IMG/VR virus record: IMGVR_UViG_3300037330_000002
Location: 1 to 27,742 of that record
Length of the DNA: 27,742 nt
Source: a virus
Taxonomy: Duplodnaviria > Caudoviricetes
Reading direction: 5' to 3' (one strand)
How positions within the stretch are numbered: position 1 is the stretch's first letter; each line of letters starts with the position of its first letter. Both the position numbers and the translations under genes were made by a program. Shown piece by piece: positions 1-27,742 of the stretch. Under the pieces are notes generated by a model. The model had not been told where the DNA came from. It saw only the letters and a list, made by a program, of their open reading frames with translations, and did not search any database.

Positions 1-48
1 TGATTCAGCCGCGCGGGTCTCGCACAAAAAGCGTTTTGTTTACCACTA

Positions 49-77
49 TTAACTTTCTCAGAAAACTAGGATACACT
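49..77 (+). promoter_or_regulatory. Putative sigma70-type promoter for the terminase genes (TTAACT-17-TACACT)
   Basis: TTAACT at 49-54 and TACACT at 72-77 with a 17-nt spacer, each 4/6 to consensus; ATG at 84 follows 6 nt after the -10 box. Confidence 0.35.
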
Positions 78-83
78 GTACGA

Positions 84-914
84 ATGGTAAAGAAACTGAT
101 AAGCCGGGCCGAGTTTGCTCGCCAAGCGGGAGTTACAGGCGCGGCCGTAACGAAGGCTTGCAATAATGCTTTGAAGCCTGCTTGTGACGGCAAGCGCATT
201 GACGCGGCGCACACACTTGCGGTTGATTACTTGGCTATGAAGGCGCGCGCTCAGACAGAACCACCCGCTACCGGCATCGACCCACTCTATGAACCAGTGG
301 TCAGATATTGCCAAGAACAAAACAAATGGACTAAGTCCGCCGTGCAAGCCGAGTTTAGGATCCCTTTTAACCGAGCGCGCAATATAATCGAGACTATGAA
401 AATAAATGGGCTGATAAATAAAGATCCTACTAATGTGGTCACGGCCTCGGCTATAAAACAACCGCACATTCGAGGCCCCGCAGCTGCAAAAGAAACTAAA
501 AAGAGATTAGCATACGAAGATGATCCGATACTTGAGATCCCCGAAGACATACAGGCCTTTGCGCATATGACACTGCGCGATTTAATTGATAAGTTCGGCA
601 CCGATACGCGCTTTGTGGATTGGCTTAGCGCCACGCAAAAAATAGAAGCCATTAACGAGAAGAGACTGAAAAACGCAACCACCGAGGGCGAGCTTGTTAG
701 TCGTAAGTTAATCCGTACAGGCATAATAGAACCTATAGACGCCTGCCATATAAAATTATTAACTGACGGCGCCAAGACGATAGCGCGCAGAGCCACCGCA
801 ATGCACTCAGCCAACAGGCCTATTGAGGATATAGAAAAATTTGTTGCGGACCAGATGAGCAGTTTTATCAGACCCGTAAAAGCGAAAGTCGCTAGGGCGA
901 TGCGCAATGCGTAG
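84..914 (+). CDS. Terminase small subunit (Nu1-like) with an internal FtsK gamma-like winged-helix domain
   Basis: Directly upstream of and overlapping the large terminase; N-terminal HTH (ISRAEFARQAGVTGAAVTKA); Nu1-like C-terminal helix (KIEAINEKRLKNATTEGELVSR); ATG 84 preferred over TTG 36. Confidence 0.8.
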   Translation: MVKKLISRAEFARQAGVTGAAVTKACNNALKPACDGKRIDAAHTLAVDYLAMKARAQTEPPATGIDPLYEPVVRYCQEQNKWTKSAVQAEFRIPFNRARNIIETMKINGLINKDPTNVVTASAIKQPHIRGPAAAKETKKRLAYEDDPILEIPEDIQAFAHMTLRDLIDKFGTDTRFVDWLSATQKIEAINEKRLKNATTEGELVSRKLIRTGIIEPIDACHIKLLTDGAKTIARRATAMHSANRPIEDIEKFVADQMSSFIRPVKAKVARAMRNA

Positions 915-2892
915 TATCGATAACATAGGCGCTGATTGGGTAATTTCAGAAGTCGAGGGGTTGACCGACGAGGTCATACACATATCGCCCAGCCAGTACA
1001 ACGAAGAAAATAGATACCTACCCGAATCGGTCACATCAATACCGGGTTTCATCCGCTACGACGTGAACCCGTTCATGCGCGAGATAGTTGACTGCTTTGA
1101 TGTGGATAGCCCAGTTCGAGAAGTCAATCTCAAAAAAGGCGTGCAAATAACATACTCTACTGTTCTGGAATCCGGCGCGCTGTATTTTATGGGCCACGTT
1201 AAAACGTTGCCTATCATGTATCTGACAGCGGACAAAGAACTGGCTAGCGCGCGAATAGAAAACAATTTTTTACCTATGCTCGCACACTCAGACCTAGGGC
1301 ACATAATACGTTCAAGCGACGAGGGAAACAGCCGAAAAACAGGTAAGACAGCCAACCATTTGCAATTTGAGGGTGGTGGGTATCTGGTCCCGTTTGGCGC
1401 AAAGAACGCTGACAAGATGCGATCATATTCTATCTGTGTAATGCTCAAAGATGAAATTGACGCCTGGCCGGATACGGTAGGCAAAGACGGCGACCCAGAT
1501 AAACTAAGCGACGGTCGTTGCAAAGGATATTGGGAGCGGCGCAAGATATTTAGAGGCTCTACTCCGCTCATTAAGGGTAGTTCTAAAATAGAAAAAGCGT
1601 ATCTTCGCGGCGACCAAAGAAAATATAACGTGAATTGTTTAAGTTGTGGTTTTGCTCAAGTGTTGAGGTGGAGTAGCCTTGACAAAGAGACAGGCATCAT
1701 CGGCGGATTTACGTGGGAGCTAGACGACGGTATTTTACTACTAGACTCAGTGCGATACCTTTGTCAGAAATGCGGACACCCACATCACGAGCATGACAAA
1801 GAAAGATTATTTTCAGAAGACCACGGCGCGAAATGGATTCCGACCGCGCGACCGGTTGAGCTTGGTATCCGCTCTTACCATTTGCCCGCGCTATATTCTC
1901 CTATTGGCATGGCGCCTTGGTACAGCTTAGTTGCGGATTATTTAGACTGCTATGATGTTGTCAACAAGAAAGTAAAAGACGTTGGACTATATCAAGTTTT
2001 TTACAACAACGTTCTGGCCGAGCCGTTCGAGATAATGGGCTCTAAAATTAGATTTGCTAGTGTGTCCGCGCACCGCAGGCCGGTATATAGACTGGGTCAA
2101 ATCCCGAACAACTACGCAGAGATGCATTCGGGTTCTAAAATTTTATTTCTAACTTGTTTAGTTGATGTTCACAAACAGAATTTAGCTGTATCTGTAATGG
2201 GCTGGTGTCGGGACACTAAGCCCTATGTTCTAGATTACTGGCGTTTTGAGACAGAGGGCAGTGATGACGACTGCGGCGAACTAACTAGCCCCGTCTGGGG
2301 CCGATTGCGAGAACTAATCGAAGAAAAAGAATATATCGCCGACGACGGAGTCAAGTATCGAATTGCAATAACGTTAATAGACTCTGGGTATTCTAATGAT
2401 ACAGTGACAACTTTTTGTTCGGATTATGCCTCTGGTGTTTACCCTATTCTTGGCCGCAATCGCACCGCTAAGAATCAAACGATAAAAGAATTTGCTGAGT
2501 TTACAACCCAGGCAGGTACGGTAGGTTACAGAATTTTAGTTGATCACTACAAGGACCGAATAGCCCCTGTACTACGGAGGGAATGGGAAGAGGGCGCGGG
2601 TGAACAAAAGAAATACCATTTTAACGCGCCGGTGGACATTACAGACAAGCAGCTAAAAGAATTAACCGTTGAAACTAGGCGCGAGCAAAAAGACGAAAAA
2701 GGAATAGTAACCTACTTTTGGCATAGGCCCGGAAACGCTCATAACGAGCTTTGGGATCTATTAGTCTATGGCCACGCTGCAGTTGAGATAATGGCGTGGG
2801 CTATTTGTATACAGCATTTTAAGCTAGAAACAATTGATTGGCCAACGTTCTGGGATTACATTGAAAATGAAAAACTTTACTACAGTACATAA
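907..2892 (+). CDS. Terminase large subunit, lambda GpA family
   Basis: 661 aa; NPFMREIVD motif, GpA-type Walker A (KKGVQITYST), Walker B (VMLKDEIDAW), GSTP motif, CxxC...CxxC (CLSC/CQKC), nuclease motifs VDVH, IDSGY and NELWDLLVY. Confidence 0.95.
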   Translation: MRSIDNIGADWVISEVEGLTDEVIHISPSQYNEENRYLPESVTSIPGFIRYDVNPFMREIVDCFDVDSPVREVNLKKGVQITYSTVLESGALYFMGHVKTLPIMYLTADKELASARIENNFLPMLAHSDLGHIIRSSDEGNSRKTGKTANHLQFEGGGYLVPFGAKNADKMRSYSICVMLKDEIDAWPDTVGKDGDPDKLSDGRCKGYWERRKIFRGSTPLIKGSSKIEKAYLRGDQRKYNVNCLSCGFAQVLRWSSLDKETGIIGGFTWELDDGILLLDSVRYLCQKCGHPHHEHDKERLFSEDHGAKWIPTARPVELGIRSYHLPALYSPIGMAPWYSLVADYLDCYDVVNKKVKDVGLYQVFYNNVLAEPFEIMGSKIRFASVSAHRRPVYRLGQIPNNYAEMHSGSKILFLTCLVDVHKQNLAVSVMGWCRDTKPYVLDYWRFETEGSDDDCGELTSPVWGRLRELIEEKEYIADDGVKYRIAITLIDSGYSNDTVTTFCSDYASGVYPILGRNRTAKNQTIKEFAEFTTQAGTVGYRILVDHYKDRIAPVLRREWEEGAGEQKKYHFNAPVDITDKQLKELTVETRREQKDEKGIVTYFWHRPGNAHNELWDLLVYGHAAVEIMAWAICIQHFKLETIDWPTFWDYIENEKLYYST

Positions 2893-13611: not shown

Positions 13612-14001
13612 ATGAGAATTACCGTTGCATGTCCAGAACAATTACAATCAGACTCAAACCAACTTGCCATGTGTTTAGCCTTAAGCGTAGCCGATGTGGA
13701 TACATATAAACATCTTTCATGGCAGGATGCAGAAGGTAATCTATATGCTGTAGCGAGTTTCCCGACAACTGACGCATGGATTCACTTCGCTCAGAACACG
13801 CTTAATAGACCCGCGTGGGATGTTGACAGCGTCATTGATATGGACGCTGTTTTCAGAGCGCAAAGTAAACTAGTGTTTAGCGATGCCGCAATCGAAGCAG
13901 TGCCTAATAAACTAACAGCTTGCTTAGGCGATAACGGCTTAGATGTCCTTTTAAATATGGGCTTGTTTGCGATACCTAGTAGCGAAGAGGGTTTAATTTA
14001 A
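13612..14001 (+). CDS. Hypothetical protein (accessory cassette gene 1)
   Basis: 129 aa ORF starting 3 nt after the tape measure stop; TAATG coupling to the next gene. Confidence 0.65.
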   Translation: MRITVACPEQLQSDSNQLAMCLALSVADVDTYKHLSWQDAEGNLYAVASFPTTDAWIHFAQNTLNRPAWDVDSVIDMDAVFRAQSKLVFSDAAIEAVPNKLTACLGDNGLDVLLNMGLFAIPSSEEGLI

Positions 14002-14810
14002 TGGCATTTGACCCAGCAACCCTATTCGCTAATGGTGAAGTTGGCGCATGGTACGAGCCAAGGGACATAACAACCCTATTTCAAGATGCAGCGGGGACAA
14101 TACCTGTAACAGCTGATGGTCAACCTGTGGGTAAAATGCTTGATAAGTCAGGTAATGGGTATCATGCGACTGAATCAGTGGCTAGTAAGCGCCCTACGTT
14201 TAGAGATGTGGGCGGGGTTCAATGGTTAGAGTTTGATGGAGTAGACGATAGCCTTAATTTGGGAAGTTTTCTTTTAACATCGGATAGCGTATTATCTACT
14301 GCCTTCACGTCAACGGGATATATAGCTTTAGCAGGAGATACTGGAGGCGGTCGTTTTATTGGTCTTGGTAGGGATAGGGGTAGCGAAAATACAACCTCAA
14401 CTAACAACGTTAGTAGTCCAACAGTACTTTTAGATGGGGTAGCTTTTTCAAATAAAACACAAACAGAACTTTTTAATGCCGCAAGTGGGAATGGTAGCCA
14501 TGTTTATTCTGTTGGAGGGGATTATACTCAGTGGTCTAACAGTGCGTTTATAGGTAAGAGTAATGATGAAACTATGCACCATGAGGGTGCTATTTACGGA
14601 ATTATCATCTATGAAGGTGAGACTACACAAAAGACACAGGATGTAAGTAAATACCTAACCGCGTTATCTGTGCCAGCTGTAACACCGCCCACGCCCACGC
14701 CCGGCGAAGATTTTACAATTCAGATCGACACGTCTATAAAAGTCCTACTAATTGACGCAAGCACAAAAATAATAGAAACTACACCCAACAACTACACAAT
14801 AAAGGTATAG
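14001..14810 (+). CDS. Putative lectin-like (ConA/LamG-type beta-sandwich) virion appendage protein
   Basis: GAWYEPRDITTLFQDAAGT..VTADGQPVG.MLDKSGNGYHAT...RPT...LEFDGVDD pattern recalled from phage fibre LamG-like domains; Pro/Thr linker near the C-terminus. Confidence 0.6.
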   Translation: MAFDPATLFANGEVGAWYEPRDITTLFQDAAGTIPVTADGQPVGKMLDKSGNGYHATESVASKRPTFRDVGGVQWLEFDGVDDSLNLGSFLLTSDSVLSTAFTSTGYIALAGDTGGGRFIGLGRDRGSENTTSTNNVSSPTVLLDGVAFSNKTQTELFNAASGNGSHVYSVGGDYTQWSNSAFIGKSNDETMHHEGAIYGIIIYEGETTQKTQDVSKYLTALSVPAVTPPTPTPGEDFTIQIDTSIKVLLIDASTKIIETTPNNYTIKV

Positions 14811-14813
14811 CCG

Positions 14814-15164
14814 ATGTTAATTTCACTAACCGCCGCGATAGACTCGGGCAATGAAACCGTATTTAATGTGATCGATAGCGACGGCGCCATTGTGGATTTA
14901 ACAGCATTAGGCGCTACAGTTGTCACGGTTGAAGTGTGCGGCCCTCTTATTAATAATGGGTCTGGCGTCACTATCGACAGCACGACCGACGATGTCACGT
15001 TCTTAAATGATGTCGTGCGCGTTAAATTCGGCCAGCTTGATTTAAAAAGCTCACCGCCTTTTTACTACCCAAAAATCAGTTACGTAACAGCGGCCGACAC
15101 TGAAAAAGAAGTGCTAGTTGGAGAAGGCTACGCGACAGAAATTAAACTCAAGGTTATTTGCTAA
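14814..15164 (+). CDS. Hypothetical beta-rich protein, possibly an Ig-like/BppU-N-like adaptor
   Basis: 116 aa; DSDGAIVDLT motif and alternating beta pattern; TAATG coupling to the next gene. Confidence 0.5.
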   Translation: MLISLTAAIDSGNETVFNVIDSDGAIVDLTALGATVVTVEVCGPLINNGSGVTIDSTTDDVTFLNDVVRVKFGQLDLKSSPPFYYPKISYVTAADTEKEVLVGEGYATEIKLKVIC

Positions 15165-20648: not shown

Positions 20649-21485
20649 ATGGCTTTAAATATTAACAATACCTACGCGAATAGCATCGCAGCGGATGCCG
20701 ACTATCCATTCGGATCCGCTAAAAATGAAACATCGCCGGGGGATTTAGACGGGACGCCGCTAGAAAAAGCGGGTCTGGATGATTTATACGGTTTAATGCA
20801 GTCGCTACTCGCCGCCGCAGGGCTTGTACCAAACGGCAACCCCGACACAGTTTTAGCGCCGCAATACCTAGCATCTATATTCAATTTACGCTGGTATAAC
20901 AAGGTCGACTTTGTGGTCGGCTCTAAAGTTGTGGGCTCAAACGGTGCGACATATGTGTGCAAGCAAGCAAACGGGCCCGCTAGCACAGTTCAAGACCCGG
21001 TAACAGAAGGCTCGCCACGCACAAAATGGTTAACCGAGGCGTCGAGCATGTTTGATTTACTCAACCCAGTAGGCGCTCTTTACTTCTCACACGCTTCTAA
21101 TAGCCCGGCGGACCTCTACGACGTTGGAACGTGGCTTCGAATTAAGGGCCGCTTTATAGTTGGTTTGGACGAAGCAGACACAGATTTCAATACAGTTGGC
21201 GAGACGGGCGGCACAAAAAACCACAACCATGGTAATACCTTGGATACAGTTAATCATATTTTAACAATTGACCAGATGCCCAACCACAACCACAATTATG
21301 TCCGAGAGAATACAAGGGGGGCGGGGTCAAACGGCGCATCTGATGGGGCGTCGAGTTTCTTTGACCAAGACACCTCAAGCACGGGCGGTAACCTAGGCCA
21401 CAATCACAATATTTCGGGGGCTGTGAGCGATAGAGAATTATTGCCGCCCTATCAAGTAGAATACATTTGGCGGAGAACAGCATAA
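20649..21485 (+). CDS. Tail fibre 1 (short; anchor, CBM5/12-like segment, collar/T4 gp10-C-like domain)
   Basis: PVGALY, GTWLRIKGRFIVG, GETGG, LTIDQMPNHNH and LPPYQVEYIWRRTA motifs; three HNH motifs. Confidence 0.8.
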   Translation: MALNINNTYANSIAADADYPFGSAKNETSPGDLDGTPLEKAGLDDLYGLMQSLLAAAGLVPNGNPDTVLAPQYLASIFNLRWYNKVDFVVGSKVVGSNGATYVCKQANGPASTVQDPVTEGSPRTKWLTEASSMFDLLNPVGALYFSHASNSPADLYDVGTWLRIKGRFIVGLDEADTDFNTVGETGGTKNHNHGNTLDTVNHILTIDQMPNHNHNYVRENTRGAGSNGASDGASSFFDQDTSSTGGNLGHNHNISGAVSDRELLPPYQVEYIWRRTA

Positions 21486-23365
21486 TGGCCATTAAACCAG
21501 ATTCATTATTTGTAGGAAAGATAGCTGCGGCTAGCACCGATTACCCGCTCGGCTCGGCTCGCAACGTGGTCACGTCTGGCGATGGCACGGGCACGCCTTT
21601 TTTAGCGGACTTAGTTAATGATACGTTTGGGTTTTACCAAGCGTTGCTAGCGGAGGCTGGGATAACGCCAAGTGAGAGCCCAGACACGGCAGTCAATTCG
21701 CAGTACTTGGCAGCTATATTTAAAATAAGTGGGGCTAACTTTGATACTGTTTTGGCGTTTGTCGCTGGAAAAGTCCCGGCCTCCGTCAACTTAGTTACAA
21801 CGCTTGGTTTCGGAGTTTCTGGGGATGGGGGTTTCGGTCTTTGGAAACGCACAGGAGCAACAGCTGCGCCGTCGCAAACCCCAGAGCAACGATACGCCCC
21901 GTCACTAACCGATAGTACGGGTGCTGTTTTTGACTACGTCTATGAGCGTCTGGTTAATCTTAATGCGTTAGGTATGGTTACTAATTTAAGTTGCGGCGCG
22001 GTATTAAACATAGGTTATCAAATGATACGCGACAGCTATATTTTTGTGGCCGCGTTAACAATTCCACAAATGCCCCTTGTTATCACTGCAAAGCCAGCGG
22101 TTTATTTTACAACGGAGTCCATAAACGCACAGTTATTAACGGGAACTGGTTGGGCCGTAGAATTCACTGGCGTAGCTATAGAAGGGCGTGCAACGGGTAA
22201 AACCATTTTAGATATGCTAGGTAGCCGATTTGGTCGAACCGTGGGGTTGCATATCATAGGTGATTTAACTAATAAACCAGCTCAAGGGATACAATACGGT
22301 AGGCTTGAAAGAACTGTATCGGCAGATAATTTACAATTTATAAACATAAAAACATCTGGGAGATTTACTCGCACAGCTGCGTATAATTTAGCTTCTGAAA
22401 CCGAGTACTGGGAACATTTAGAGTTATACAACGGGGAAGATGGGGATGATACCGGTGGCTTTTGTCACATTTTTGATGGTAATAATACTTTTGGAGCTAT
22501 AACAGATTTTACTGCACCTACAATGGCGCAATATGATGATATGTCTATAGTACAACACGTTTTTGTAAATCCCGACTGGAGAAAATTTACAAGTTCAGGG
22601 CCAGCAATGTGGATGAGTCGTGCTAGACAATTCGAAGTTGTTGGGGGCTACATTGTTTGTAATGACGACCACGCAATTATAATTTCTTGCGACAGCGACG
22701 AAATGCGTAACTTGAACTTTGACATGCATTTAGAAACATCGGGGGCATTAGGGCTTGTTAGATTCGAGAAAAATGGCGGCACGGCCAACACTGCGGCAAC
22801 CATTGCAGGGTTTAGGCACAGAGACCACAATTTGCAAACAGCAAACACGGTTTATCGCGTAGGCGCTAGTATGACTTTAGTTACGCTTGAAGATGCGGAT
22901 ATTCACATAGAGAGCTTTCAAACTTTACCACCAAACGGTTTAATAGTTCCAAACAGCAAAGCCCGAATACAAGGTGATATTTACGTTGATGATTCGGCGG
23001 CTTTGGGGCCGTTTGAGTTCTACGGAACTCTTAAAACTCGTAATGCCCATGCGGGGACTTACGGAGTAGGGACATATACTATAATTGACGTGGCTAACGG
23101 AGAGCAGTGGCACAAAGGCAAACATAATTTTTTAAAAGATAACGCAGATGTAATACCCGCTAATACATTAGCTACTAGGGATACGCTAGTGCTAAAAGAC
23201 GAATCAATGCAATTCCCAGCTTCTTCTGCTGCTCCCGCAATAGGTTCTTCTCGTTTTCCTTTAGCCTTAGATGATGGGTCTAATTGGTCGGGCGCTAATG
23301 CAACAGGAGCTAATCGGTTAGTTTTTTATGACGGAACTGGTTGGAAACTAGTAGATGTAACATGA
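21485..23365 (+). CDS. Tail fibre/spike 2 (probable beta-helix depolymerase-type receptor-binding protein)
   Basis: N-terminal about 80 aa paralogous to fibre 1; VTTLGF..SGDGGFGLW tailspike neck motif; Asn/Gly/Ile-rich beta body. Confidence 0.75.
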   Translation: MAIKPDSLFVGKIAAASTDYPLGSARNVVTSGDGTGTPFLADLVNDTFGFYQALLAEAGITPSESPDTAVNSQYLAAIFKISGANFDTVLAFVAGKVPASVNLVTTLGFGVSGDGGFGLWKRTGATAAPSQTPEQRYAPSLTDSTGAVFDYVYERLVNLNALGMVTNLSCGAVLNIGYQMIRDSYIFVAALTIPQMPLVITAKPAVYFTTESINAQLLTGTGWAVEFTGVAIEGRATGKTILDMLGSRFGRTVGLHIIGDLTNKPAQGIQYGRLERTVSADNLQFINIKTSGRFTRTAAYNLASETEYWEHLELYNGEDGDDTGGFCHIFDGNNTFGAITDFTAPTMAQYDDMSIVQHVFVNPDWRKFTSSGPAMWMSRARQFEVVGGYIVCNDDHAIIISCDSDEMRNLNFDMHLETSGALGLVRFEKNGGTANTAATIAGFRHRDHNLQTANTVYRVGASMTLVTLEDADIHIESFQTLPPNGLIVPNSKARIQGDIYVDDSAALGPFEFYGTLKTRNAHAGTYGVGTYTIIDVANGEQWHKGKHNFLKDNADVIPANTLATRDTLVLKDESMQFPASSAAPAIGSSRFPLALDDGSNWSGANATGANRLVFYDGTGWKLVDVT

Positions 23366-24763: not shown

Positions 24764-27112
24764 TTAACCCTTCCTATATCGTTTGCCACGCCAGCCACCG
24801 GCGGCGCGTATTGGCCAATCTGACCCCCATGGCGGCATTGTTGCCATAATTCGCTCAAACTCTTCTATTGAGCCTGTTCCTTGTACTACTTCGCTTACAA
24901 TTTCATCGTGAACGTGCAGGGCGATAGCATACCCAGCGCGCTCTACGTTTTTCATGGCAAACGTTAATATGTCCCGTGCTATCGCTTGAACAACATTCTC
25001 ACACAGTTTGCCGCCGTAGGTTTCCATACGCATCCAGCCTTGTGGGCCCTTCTTATAGTCCGAATTCCAACCCATGTATGTGAGTTTTAAAACAGGTTTT
25101 CCCCACGGTGTCGTATCGGGGTGTAGTCTCGGCTGATGATAGGATAATTTACGACCACTCAATAACTGGCAGTATAAAACGTCGTCTTTAACGCCATAAG
25201 TTAACCCGTTGTAGGCGTAACAAGTGCCGGGGTTTTGCACTGCAGCGGTGGCCGCATCCTGTAACCCGTACCAAAACTTAACTATCATCGGCGATTCTTT
25301 GCGCCAAGCTTTTATTGACTCGCGGATCTCTTCCTCATTCATGTACTTGTCAGCGCCAAAAGCAACGCAAGCACCGTAGCCCCCTTGATACCCTAAAGCC
25401 AGTTCGTTTACTTTCCCTTTTTTACGTAGCGGGTGATGATCGCCAGTGTCTTTTTTATACTGGATCAAGTCTTCGAACGGCACGCCGGATATTTTAGCGG
25501 CCGACATTTCGTAAATTTTGCCATGCGTGCGAAAAACGTCTATGCGCCATTGCTCGCCCGACAACATAGCCAAGACCACGGCTTCGATAGCGGAGTAGTC
25601 CGAACAAATAAAGTCGCAACCGGGCGCAGCGGAAAACAAGCCGCGCAGACAGCCAGAGACAGCCGCTATCGCGTCGCCGAAGTAATGCTCTACCATTTTA
25701 AGGTCTTTCGACGCTATGACTTTGAGCGCGTCATTTACCGCGTCTATGCCCCACTCAGCGGGTTTTGCAAAGCTGAGGGCGGAACGACACCAAGGGCATT
25801 CTTTTAAATGTGGCGAATAGTGCAGCTCGCAACGGCACAGCACAACCTCAGGGCCGCTGTTTGGTAAGTTCTGTGGCTGCGGTCCTCTGCCAGCAAAGCG
25901 CCCCGTACGGTCAGCGCCGCAGAACGCGAAAAGGTCTCTTAATCGCCCATCGGCAGATCGGCGGCGGTCTATTGCAAACAGTTTTTTAACACTGGCCGCG
26001 CCTATTAACGCGCGTATTTCTAAAACACGTTTAACAGCGGCGCAATTCGGGAGATTTGAAAGTTCAAGCGCGTCTAGTATGTCTACTTGATGGACGTTGT
26101 TTTCTTGCGCTAATACGTCAAGCGTATGAGGGTCATTTTCAGATATTAATTGGCCCGCGAGTTTATCTATTAAATCAAATTTTTTAAGTTTACTAGCTAC
26201 GTGATCGGCATCTAAACTAGACATATGCAGTCCGTTAGCGCCAAGCCAGCCAACCATTTTCCCAATCTCGCCCGCGCTTTGAACCGTGCCACCCGTTATT
26301 GCTATTAATTCGGCGGTATACCGTTCGAATGCCTGCTTAACTATTGCTAGGCAATTATTAAGGCCGTCAGAGTCAATGTGTACACCTCTCAGGTTGATGC
26401 ACTGGTCAAGTAGCCATAACTCTAGTTCATCGGGGCTTAAGTCCGGTATAAGCGCGGACACGGCAGATTCCGCTTTAATGTCACCTACGTTATAGCTGTA
26501 GAGTTTTGGTCCGTCGTCGTGGTCCTCTTCTGGCCTTATGCGCGTTCGAGGGTCTTTTTTAGTCGGATTATGTGGCTTACAAAACTTATTAATTAAGCGT
26601 TTTCCGTCGTCAATTTTTTGATCCGTTACTTCTAATACTTGAGCTAGCTTGCCAAGTTGACCGGGTAATGAAAATGCCCTCGCTTTGGCCATTGAATCCC
26701 GTAGCAACCAGTAAGGCAATGCAGGCCATCCCATGCGAGCATGACAAACGTTAGACCATATGTGCCACTCGAAAGCGCTGTTGTGGGCTTCGAGTAGGCC
26801 GAGTTTGGCGATATGTTCGAATAGTTTAACAGGCGGGGGCATGAACGAAAGCCACATTCTTGCGCCTTGGCCGTCTTTTAGATCATACGCCAAGCTAAGC
26901 ACTTCGGTCGATGGATGCTCAGAGTACGCAGAAGCGCCAACCGCGCCCAATCCGTGCGGAGGCGACTTAGTTATCGATACCCATTTGTTAAGCTCGGGGT
27001 CCCACACGTAGCCCGCTTCGCTATAGGTTTCGAAGTCTAGGTCTGGCAGCACGGTTGAAAAACCGCAACCGGCGGGTAAGCGGTGCCCGGCTAACAGCGT
27101 CAAGGCGGTCAT
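24764..27112 (-). CDS. Phage DNA polymerase, family A, with 3'-5' exonuclease domain
   Basis: Exo I DLDFETYS, Exo II AHNSAFE, Exo III YNVGD; RTGRFAG..QPQNLP; motif A DYSAIE, motif B RKKGKVNELALGY, motif C HVHDEIV. Confidence 0.95.
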   Translation of the reverse strand: MTALTLLAGHRLPAGCGFSTVLPDLDFETYSEAGYVWDPELNKWVSITKSPPHGLGAVGASAYSEHPSTEVLSLAYDLKDGQGARMWLSFMPPPVKLFEHIAKLGLLEAHNSAFEWHIWSNVCHARMGWPALPYWLLRDSMAKARAFSLPGQLGKLAQVLEVTDQKIDDGKRLINKFCKPHNPTKKDPRTRIRPEEDHDDGPKLYSYNVGDIKAESAVSALIPDLSPDELELWLLDQCINLRGVHIDSDGLNNCLAIVKQAFERYTAELIAITGGTVQSAGEIGKMVGWLGANGLHMSSLDADHVASKLKKFDLIDKLAGQLISENDPHTLDVLAQENNVHQVDILDALELSNLPNCAAVKRVLEIRALIGAASVKKLFAIDRRRSADGRLRDLFAFCGADRTGRFAGRGPQPQNLPNSGPEVVLCRCELHYSPHLKECPWCRSALSFAKPAEWGIDAVNDALKVIASKDLKMVEHYFGDAIAAVSGCLRGLFSAAPGCDFICSDYSAIEAVVLAMLSGEQWRIDVFRTHGKIYEMSAAKISGVPFEDLIQYKKDTGDHHPLRKKGKVNELALGYQGGYGACVAFGADKYMNEEEIRESIKAWRKESPMIVKFWYGLQDAATAAVQNPGTCYAYNGLTYGVKDDVLYCQLLSGRKLSYHQPRLHPDTTPWGKPVLKLTYMGWNSDYKKGPQGWMRMETYGGKLCENVVQAIARDILTFAMKNVERAGYAIALHVHDEIVSEVVQGTGSIEEFERIMATMPPWGSDWPIRAAGGWRGKRYRKG

Positions 27113-27410: not shown

Positions 27411-27742
27411 CTACGCGCGCGGCAATGCTTCTATTTGCGCCGCGGTGTAATTAAATGACAACAATTCCGCTTCGGTCCACCCGTTTCCGTTTGCGTCAAG
27501 GTATTTCACCTCGGCGGGTGCTGGTGCTGGTGCTGGTGCTGGTGCTGGTGCTGGTCCCTTCAAAAAGTCAGGCGCGGGCGCAACGTCGCTAGGCGGGGCT
27601 TGTGCTGGACCTTGATCGGGCGGAGCCATCGCAGGGCCTTGAGCGGGCGGAGCCATCGCAGGGCCTTGAGCTAACGGTGCGGAACCGGCTAAAGGCGTAA
27701 CGCTTGCACCGGGCGGCAGTGCTGCGGCGGGTGACGCACCGA
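27411..27742 (-). CDS. 3' end of a gene truncated by the window edge; Pro/Ala-rich tail, possibly a phage ssDNA-binding protein
   Basis: Frame open from the window end (GASPAAALPPGASVTPLAGSAPLAQGPAMAPP...); SSB call rests only on position upstream of the polymerase and the following terminator. Confidence 0.5.
   Translation of the reverse strand, partial: GASPAAALPPGASVTPLAGSAPLAQGPAMAPPAQGPAMAPPDQGPAQAPPSDVAPAPDFLKGPAPAPAPAPAPAPAEVKYLDANGNGWTEAELLSFNYTAAQIEALPRA
27517..27555. repeat. (GGTGCT)6-GGT microsatellite encoding a Pro-Ala run
   Basis: Perfect hexamer repeat read directly. Confidence 0.95.
27618..27671. repeat. Perfect 27-bp tandem duplication (AQGPAMAPP x2)
   Basis: GGGCGGAGCCATCGCAGGGCCTTGAGC occurs at 27618-27644 and 27645-27671. 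Confidence 0.95.

Follow-up and report, generated by a model that had tools for sequence, protein, structure and literature searches.

The window, as we call the whole stretch of viral DNA analyzed here (27,742 nt), encodes a predicted terminase small subunit (TerS) whose middle part is a genuine FtsK gamma domain, reduced to a wingless three-helix core. From the comparison of sequences, the reading we favor, with modest confidence, is that this domain serves as an optional and largely sequence-independent grip on DNA, while the genome end would be picked by the N-terminal helix-turn-helix (HTH) of the same protein.

A predicted small terminase and its relatives

The gene (terS) extends over 84..914 (+ strand) and its product has 276 aa. 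The initial annotation had used a frame at 36..914, which does encode the peptide quoted there as gamma-like (279-416 on the + strand, residues 82-127 of that frame), but ATG 84 is the most likely start, since homologues begin at this codon, and TTG 36 was discarded. The assignment as TerS is based on PHROG 13700, phrog_57 and the GpA-type terminase large subunit (TerL) gene downstream (907..2892, + strand; Pfam GpA_ATPase and GpA_nuclease), which overlaps terS. PHROG 13700, labeled 'FtsK/SpoIIIE-like' in the category moron/host takeover, matches the whole window protein, while phrog_57 (terminase small subunit) is matched by 96 of the 117 aligned family members at E<=0.01 (best E 1e-8) and by the window protein with E 0.006, which relates the N-terminal HTH to that of known TerS. 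Of 77 loci (75 viral loci, Shewanella phage SppYZU01 and the window), 76 were found to have a TerL homologue 3' of terS, and the TerL gene of the window is followed by genes for a lambda-family portal, an S49 protease, gpD and gpE. The current label of PHROG 13700 should thus most likely be corrected to that of a TerS family.

The protein begins with an HTH DNA-binding domain (aa 2-53; 87..242, + strand; recognition segment 129-158), the predicted reader of a repeat close to the genome end (see below), followed by the gamma core (aa 66-112; 279..419, + strand). Next come a variable linker with a conserved RG-AA-KK helix (420..527, + strand), partly disordered with pLDDT <50 at aa 115-122, and a strongly conserved helical C-terminal domain (528..911, + strand), for which oligomerization and TerL binding are predicted by parallel with the lambda TerS described in PMC9026076. 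The C-terminus had been called Nu1-like; it is indeed helical, but the profile comparison (hhalign) with lambda Nu1 gave an E of 0.2, below significance, and Nu1 was absent from the matches listed by the Foldseek and VIA fold searches.

The family comprises 435 proteins, and 633 clusters at E<=1e-30. Among 42 matching records, SppYZU01 is the one cultured phage with a close full-length relative, and no integrated prophage copies were seen among GTDB genomes, where three contigs matched, all of them in MAGs.

Several peculiarities were seen around these genes. Most relatives have overlapping terS and terL, whereas a gap of 190-750 nt, which may hold a small inserted gene, separates them in L013, L017, L037, L041, L046, L057, L062, and L063. 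At one locus (L050:913-3900) TerL reaches 996 aa compared to the usual ~660, possibly by an intein or other insert, and at L038 the next ORF picked after terS is not TerL. Elsewhere in the window, three extra genes (129, 269, and 116 aa; 13612-15164) lie between the tape-measure-like and the next tail gene, a position where the SppYZU01 annotation does not show them; the product of 269 aa is without a Pfam match, and its gene is located in DNA of lower GC. A probable tail fibre/spike of 632 aa, also with no Pfam match (21467-23365), a Family A DNA polymerase (24764-27112, minus strand) and the end of a Pro/Ala-rich repetitive protein, cut by the window edge (27411-27740, minus strand), complete these observations.

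Identity and fold of the gamma domain

The initial proposal of an FtsK gamma domain in the predicted TerS held, with the window protein scoring 39.9 bits against PF09397 FtsK_gamma (E 3.4e-10; curated Pfam cut-off 30.6) over positions 4-49/51 of the 63 in the Pfam model. The gamma domains of Escherichia coli (2J5P) and Pseudomonas aeruginosa (2VE8) both align with it without gaps, and the gapless alignment initially claimed for E. coli could thereby be reproduced with 2J5P. A PF09397 match at E<=0.1 was obtained in 114 of the 117 family members, and a search with the gamma region by itself returned the nearest relative as sole homologue.

In an AlphaFold2 model of the window TerS (117 sequences, mean pLDDT 83.7, pTM 0.35), 44 residues of the gamma domain superpose on 2VE8 (Foldseek; rmsd 0.5 A, prob 1.0, E 0.1), and a VIA fold search gave Z 7.9 and rmsd 2.4 with 54 aligned residues. 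After helix 3 the model has no strands, and the wing motif is found in none of the 117 family members and none of the 99 parsed distant relatives, compared to 29 of 29 proteobacterial FtsK. Of the winged helix originally announced, the fold was therefore recovered but the wing is missing, and we deny a full winged helix to the window gamma because the three-helix core alone is present.

Presence, exchange and selection of the gamma domain

A survey of homologues with and without the insert, as suggested in the initial annotation, was made with 66 of the 77 loci, keeping those in which the N domain is present and TerL is complete. Gamma is present in 52 and missing in 14, with seven changes on the TerL tree, and a single gamma-less clade was rejected by an AU test on 26 chosen rows (p 4e-46). 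If the tree is rooted at its midpoint, itself an assumption, this pattern corresponds to a single gain and repeated loss. Close pairs illustrate both loss and exchange: the C domain of L172, which has no gamma, is identical to that of the gamma-bearing L009 at 117 of 128 positions, while L013 and L008 share 48/52 positions in N and 126/128 in C compared to 24/46 in gamma. A more distant set was drawn from the best 150 representatives (clusters at 50% identity), of which 145 have both flanking domains; gamma gave a score in 107, and parsing succeeded for 99.

The repeated losses, together with visibly eroded gamma-like helices, below the score threshold, in six distant relatives (P0175, P0202, P0204, P0208, P0227, and P0267), are what might be expected if gamma were a near-neutral passenger in the course of decay and loss. 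We consider this very unlikely, given that gamma is kept in 107 of the 145 clusters and that its core has a dN/dS of 0.29. The dN/dS estimates come from 10 disjoint close pairs, some of them near saturation, and amount to 0.29 in both the gamma core and the N-terminal HTH, 0.06 in the C domain and 0.51 at the seven reading positions of gamma (a value of 0.09 at 'structural' gamma positions is circular). The difference between core and reading positions indicates that the gamma fold is maintained while its reading surface is relaxed.

A surface of this kind could also belong to a variable protein shield or decoy that would hinder satellite (Rpp-like) proteins, or those of defence systems, in acting on TerS. 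Rpp is described as binding the DNA-binding domain of TerS and the helix that follows, which is the position of gamma (PMC9026076), the reading surface of FtsK gamma is reported to bind protein as well (PMC5052618), and gamma segments seem to have been exchanged, with pS above that of the C domain in several pairs. Nevertheless, we regard a shield as quite unlikely, since the surface dN/dS of 0.51 stays below 1 and the basic drift of the domain fits DNA binding better, the net charge of helix 2-3 being +3.7 in the family and +1.8 in bacteria.

Genome ends and the N-terminal HTH

The window begins 4 nt inside a predicted genome end, of which it retains the last 11 of 15 nt (1..11, + strand; likely cosN/cohesive end), as deduced from contig ends and terminal repeats. 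Upstream of terS, 61 related contigs have their end at a distance of <=400 nt, and 34 of them start with a common motif, mostly 87-91 nt from the terS ATG (about 87 nt in the window); the same motif appears as a terminal repeat of 15-16 nt in 7 of 14 near-complete relatives. One locus (L021) shows the sequence flanking the predicted end. Fixed contig ends with terminal repeats of 15-16 nt are compatible with 5' cohesive ends that were filled in, but equally with direct repeats of very short length. There is also a conserved element ~25 nt upstream of the end which, in G011 and L076, equals a heptamer near the right end of lambda that we take to be cosQ. Since a distant relative, PD0307, has been reported to be of the pac/headful type (PMC10132091), the cos reading of the window lineage is drawn from its contig ends alone.

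Between the end and terS, an alignment of 35 left ends revealed a CTCGCAC box (19..25, + strand), in the interval between end and repeat, which is conserved both with and without gamma. It is followed by an imperfect tandem repeat of period 10-11 and TTxAC type (39..54, + strand; +43 to +58 from the end, and +41 to +58 across the loci), a predicted R3-like TerS site whose position can be compared with that of the single R3 of N15 at bp 48-60 (PMC9026076; see PMC4856287 for cos packaging). As only ~70 bp separate the end from terS, there is no space upstream of the gene for the R2, I1 and R1 of lambda. Six nt before the ATG lies a -10-like hexamer (72..77, + strand), and a TAnnnT hexamer ending 6-7 nt before the terS start is present in 39 of 66 loci; a strict promoter scan gave none. 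This arrangement suggests a possibly leaderless terS transcript, and TerS could autoregulate, because the tandem repeat proposed as its site has its second copy at the -35 position, where it may also serve as a -35 element.

In the loci compared, the type of the end-proximal repeat goes with the N-terminal HTH and not with gamma. From the 66 loci, 50 could be anchored, 42 classed and 37 were distinct; a P-S-[ST] recognition segment in the HTH accompanies all 14 repeats of TTGC type, and the remaining 23 of 23 are of TTxAC type. Repeat type and HTH agree in 8 of 8 independent pairs (p 0.008). This 37/37 rule was formulated post hoc from the same data. Among 41 new proteins from held-out metagenome loci, 32 were full-length, 22 had gamma, 14 could be anchored and 10 classed; for these 10 the rule gave the correct type 8 times (p 0.13), and both misses have S-T without proline in the recognition segment. 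Repeat type showed no link to five gamma traits or to gamma presence (Fisher p 0.25-1.0). Part of the association may come from block recombination, since the repeat is nearer to the HTH codons than to those of gamma. The end-proximal motifs of L013 and L008 match despite their differing gamma. The initial suggestion that gamma recognizes the packaging origin thus found no backing, as the repeat tracks the N-terminal HTH, and the loss of gamma in nested lineages, or its exchange between near-identical relatives, left the genome end almost or entirely as it was.

Some further features of the ends were noted. Of 10 right ends, two (G006 and G008; L098-L100, L104-L106) have a perfect match to the IHF consensus immediately upstream of the cosQ-like element, and AGCGGC/AGCCGC repeats are found upstream of this element at many other right ends. 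The idea that gamma replaces IHF gained nothing from the left ends, where the consensus, which missed the lambda control, matched one of the 52 loci with gamma and none of the 14 without it. In L008:1-100 and L013:1-120, terL-like sequence is fused to the left end, probably as assembly or amplification chimeras.

Possible sequence reading by the gamma domain

Residues are given in E. coli numbering, obtained by fitting those named in PMC2680272 and PMC5052618 onto the 2J5P sequence. The window gamma has A, P, N, and K at R1289, G1294, R1300, and E1306, respectively, and keeps N1296, R1297 and E1303, which bears out the earlier remark that its recognition residues are altered with respect to KOPS readers. 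Loss of the R1300/E1303/E1306 triad is reported to render FtsK KOPS-blind (PMC2680272), and an intact triad was seen in none of the 117 family members and none of the 99 parsed distant relatives, compared to 22 of 29 proteobacterial FtsK. These bacterial controls are the 30 best Pfam scorers of a 41-genome search, one of which was removed by a motif filter, so that their conservation at 1293-1298 is inflated by the choice of top scorers and by the filter. Across the family G1294, R1297 and A1298 are mostly retained (R1297 in 116 of 117), R1289 is kept in 76 of 117 and the canonical GYNRA segment in 37 of 117, while among the 99 parsed distant relatives we counted 96 different heptamers at 1294-1300.

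There is no KOPS in the window (2.28 expected), and KOPS showed neither enrichment nor skew in 14 relatives, where it is at expectation, including four with a canonical YNRA segment. In a genome-wide scan for polar 7-8-mers none passed Bonferroni correction in the window; such words passed in 5 of 15 genomes (G002, G003, G004, G007, and the gamma-less G010), mostly CTGCAG-type or unshared words, with no common polar pattern across genomes. We thus find no support for a KOPS-like polarity that would steer the packaging motor, nor for orientation reading as initially put forward, in view of the missing KOPS enrichment and of the window having no polar octamer past correction.

The relaxed reading positions may still be compatible with a diversifying specificity for other sites. 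Gamma would then be a second sequence reader that determines where packaging starts or in which direction it goes, from phage-specific, non-KOPS sites close to the end, within terS or spread over the genome. Its fold is known to read sequence (PMC3384302, PMC2680272), its reading positions differ between close relatives (L027 vs L028; L008 vs L013) and a few skewed words do pass correction in single genomes (G003, G004, and G007). We nonetheless judge a second reader unlikely: the end-proximal repeat is tracked by no gamma trait, end motifs are unchanged where gamma was swapped or lost, and no word passes in the window while the gamma-less G010 has one. Moreover, 96 variants in 99 proteins would appear to exceed any plausible co-evolution with sites.

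Binding to KOPS or XerD of the host, with segregation interference, host-DNA exclusion or transduction as the outcome, a hypothesis already in print for Sam46, is the least probable of the roles considered. R1289, reported as the XerD-activating residue (PMC5052618), is kept in the 76 members mentioned above and GYNRA in 37, but the window has A at R1289 and has neither R1300 nor E1306, the KOPS triad is intact in no member, and no dif-like pattern was found in 15 genomes.

A proposed role for gamma in packaging

Since it is missing in many relatives and lacks residues that are key to reading direction, gamma is likely a non-specific extra grip on DNA. The sequence of events that we propose starts from a wingless FtsK-gamma core that would have been inserted into the variable linker of the predicted TerS. 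The N-terminal HTH would bind the tandem repeat near the end, as in the cosB with a single R3 of N15, and the TerS oligomer would present more than one gamma core, each on a flexible tether. These cores may add backbone contacts, with R1297 kept and helix 2-3 more basic, and hence avidity; in this respect gamma by itself is described as binding weakly, and better as a trimer (PMC3384302). Such a grip could stabilize the packaging-initiation complex and compensate for the compact cosB.

Lineages without gamma might obtain a comparable grip from Lys/Arg-rich linkers. The K+R fraction is higher in gamma-less linkers (0.21 vs 0.16, p 7e-5, not tree-corrected; n=32, with the six eroded copies set aside), while their median net charge is the same as that of gamma-bearing middles. 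Relatives with gamma, without gamma and with a swapped gamma constitute a natural experiment on specific recognition versus non-specific grip.

Comparison with known systems

A fusion of TerS with FtsK_gamma was already published in 2021 for two phages of Bacillus, vB_BcM_Sam46 and Sam112 (gp1; MN604698), together with KOPS-site and transduction ideas (PMC8190038). The novelty that the initial annotation had left open is thus restricted, although the TerS family concerned is an unrelated one. Both are small terminases with FtsK_gamma, but in Sam46 the gamma domain is N-terminal, combined with Terminase_2 and described with headful pac packaging (PMC8190038), and has a canonical-like helix and a retained wing motif. 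In the window lineage a wingless, hypervariable gamma sits inside the linker of an HTH-plus-helical TerS that is accompanied by a GpA TerL and fixed ends. Terminase_2 was found neither in the window protein nor among the 25 families listed, of 44, for the 117 members, and the likeness between Sam46 and the window family is restricted to 48 gamma columns, so that the two fusions are most likely independent. With an independent, probably cos-type case joining the fusion of a pac phage, the capture of gamma by TerS recurs. It might be speculated that TerS captured gamma repeatedly, each time independently, and that here it became an exchangeable, hypervariable arms-race cassette, for phage-specific reading or for shielding from satellites or defence sensors, an idea that we find doubtful.

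The three-helix core is common to the window domain and to FtsK gamma (PF09397; 2J5P, 2VE8, 2VE9, and 5DCF), from which the former differs in having no wing, motor, KOPS triad or R1289. Phage RdgC-gamma fusions and stand-alone 'FtsK gamma' genes represent a mobile gamma module with other partners and at other loci, and the gamma of this family was matched by 254 phage records (tblastn, E<=1). In the main texts of the openly accessible literature we found no description of a TerS-gamma fusion in SppYZU01-like or GpA phages. The closest cultured counterpart, gp04 of SppYZU01 (KY622015), is 55.5% identical over its full length, lies upstream of terL and has the same architecture and family; it is annotated only as hypothetical or 'FtsK/SpoIIIE-like', and its recognition segments differ from those of the window. 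Two specificity classes of HTH and site, together with this cultured phage, make the division of labor within TerS testable.

Lambda gpNu1 and the N15 TerS share with the window protein an N-terminal HTH, a helical C-terminus and the overlap with a GpA TerL, and the cosQ-cosN-cosB order of these phages resembles the fixed end, conserved upstream element and candidate site at the R3 position seen here. The differences are the start of terS, about 87 nt from the end in the window and 190 in lambda, the predicted end of 15 nt and the extra gamma domain. Overall, the window lineage represents a separate variant of the known TerS-gamma fusion, wingless, internally inserted and probably of cos type.
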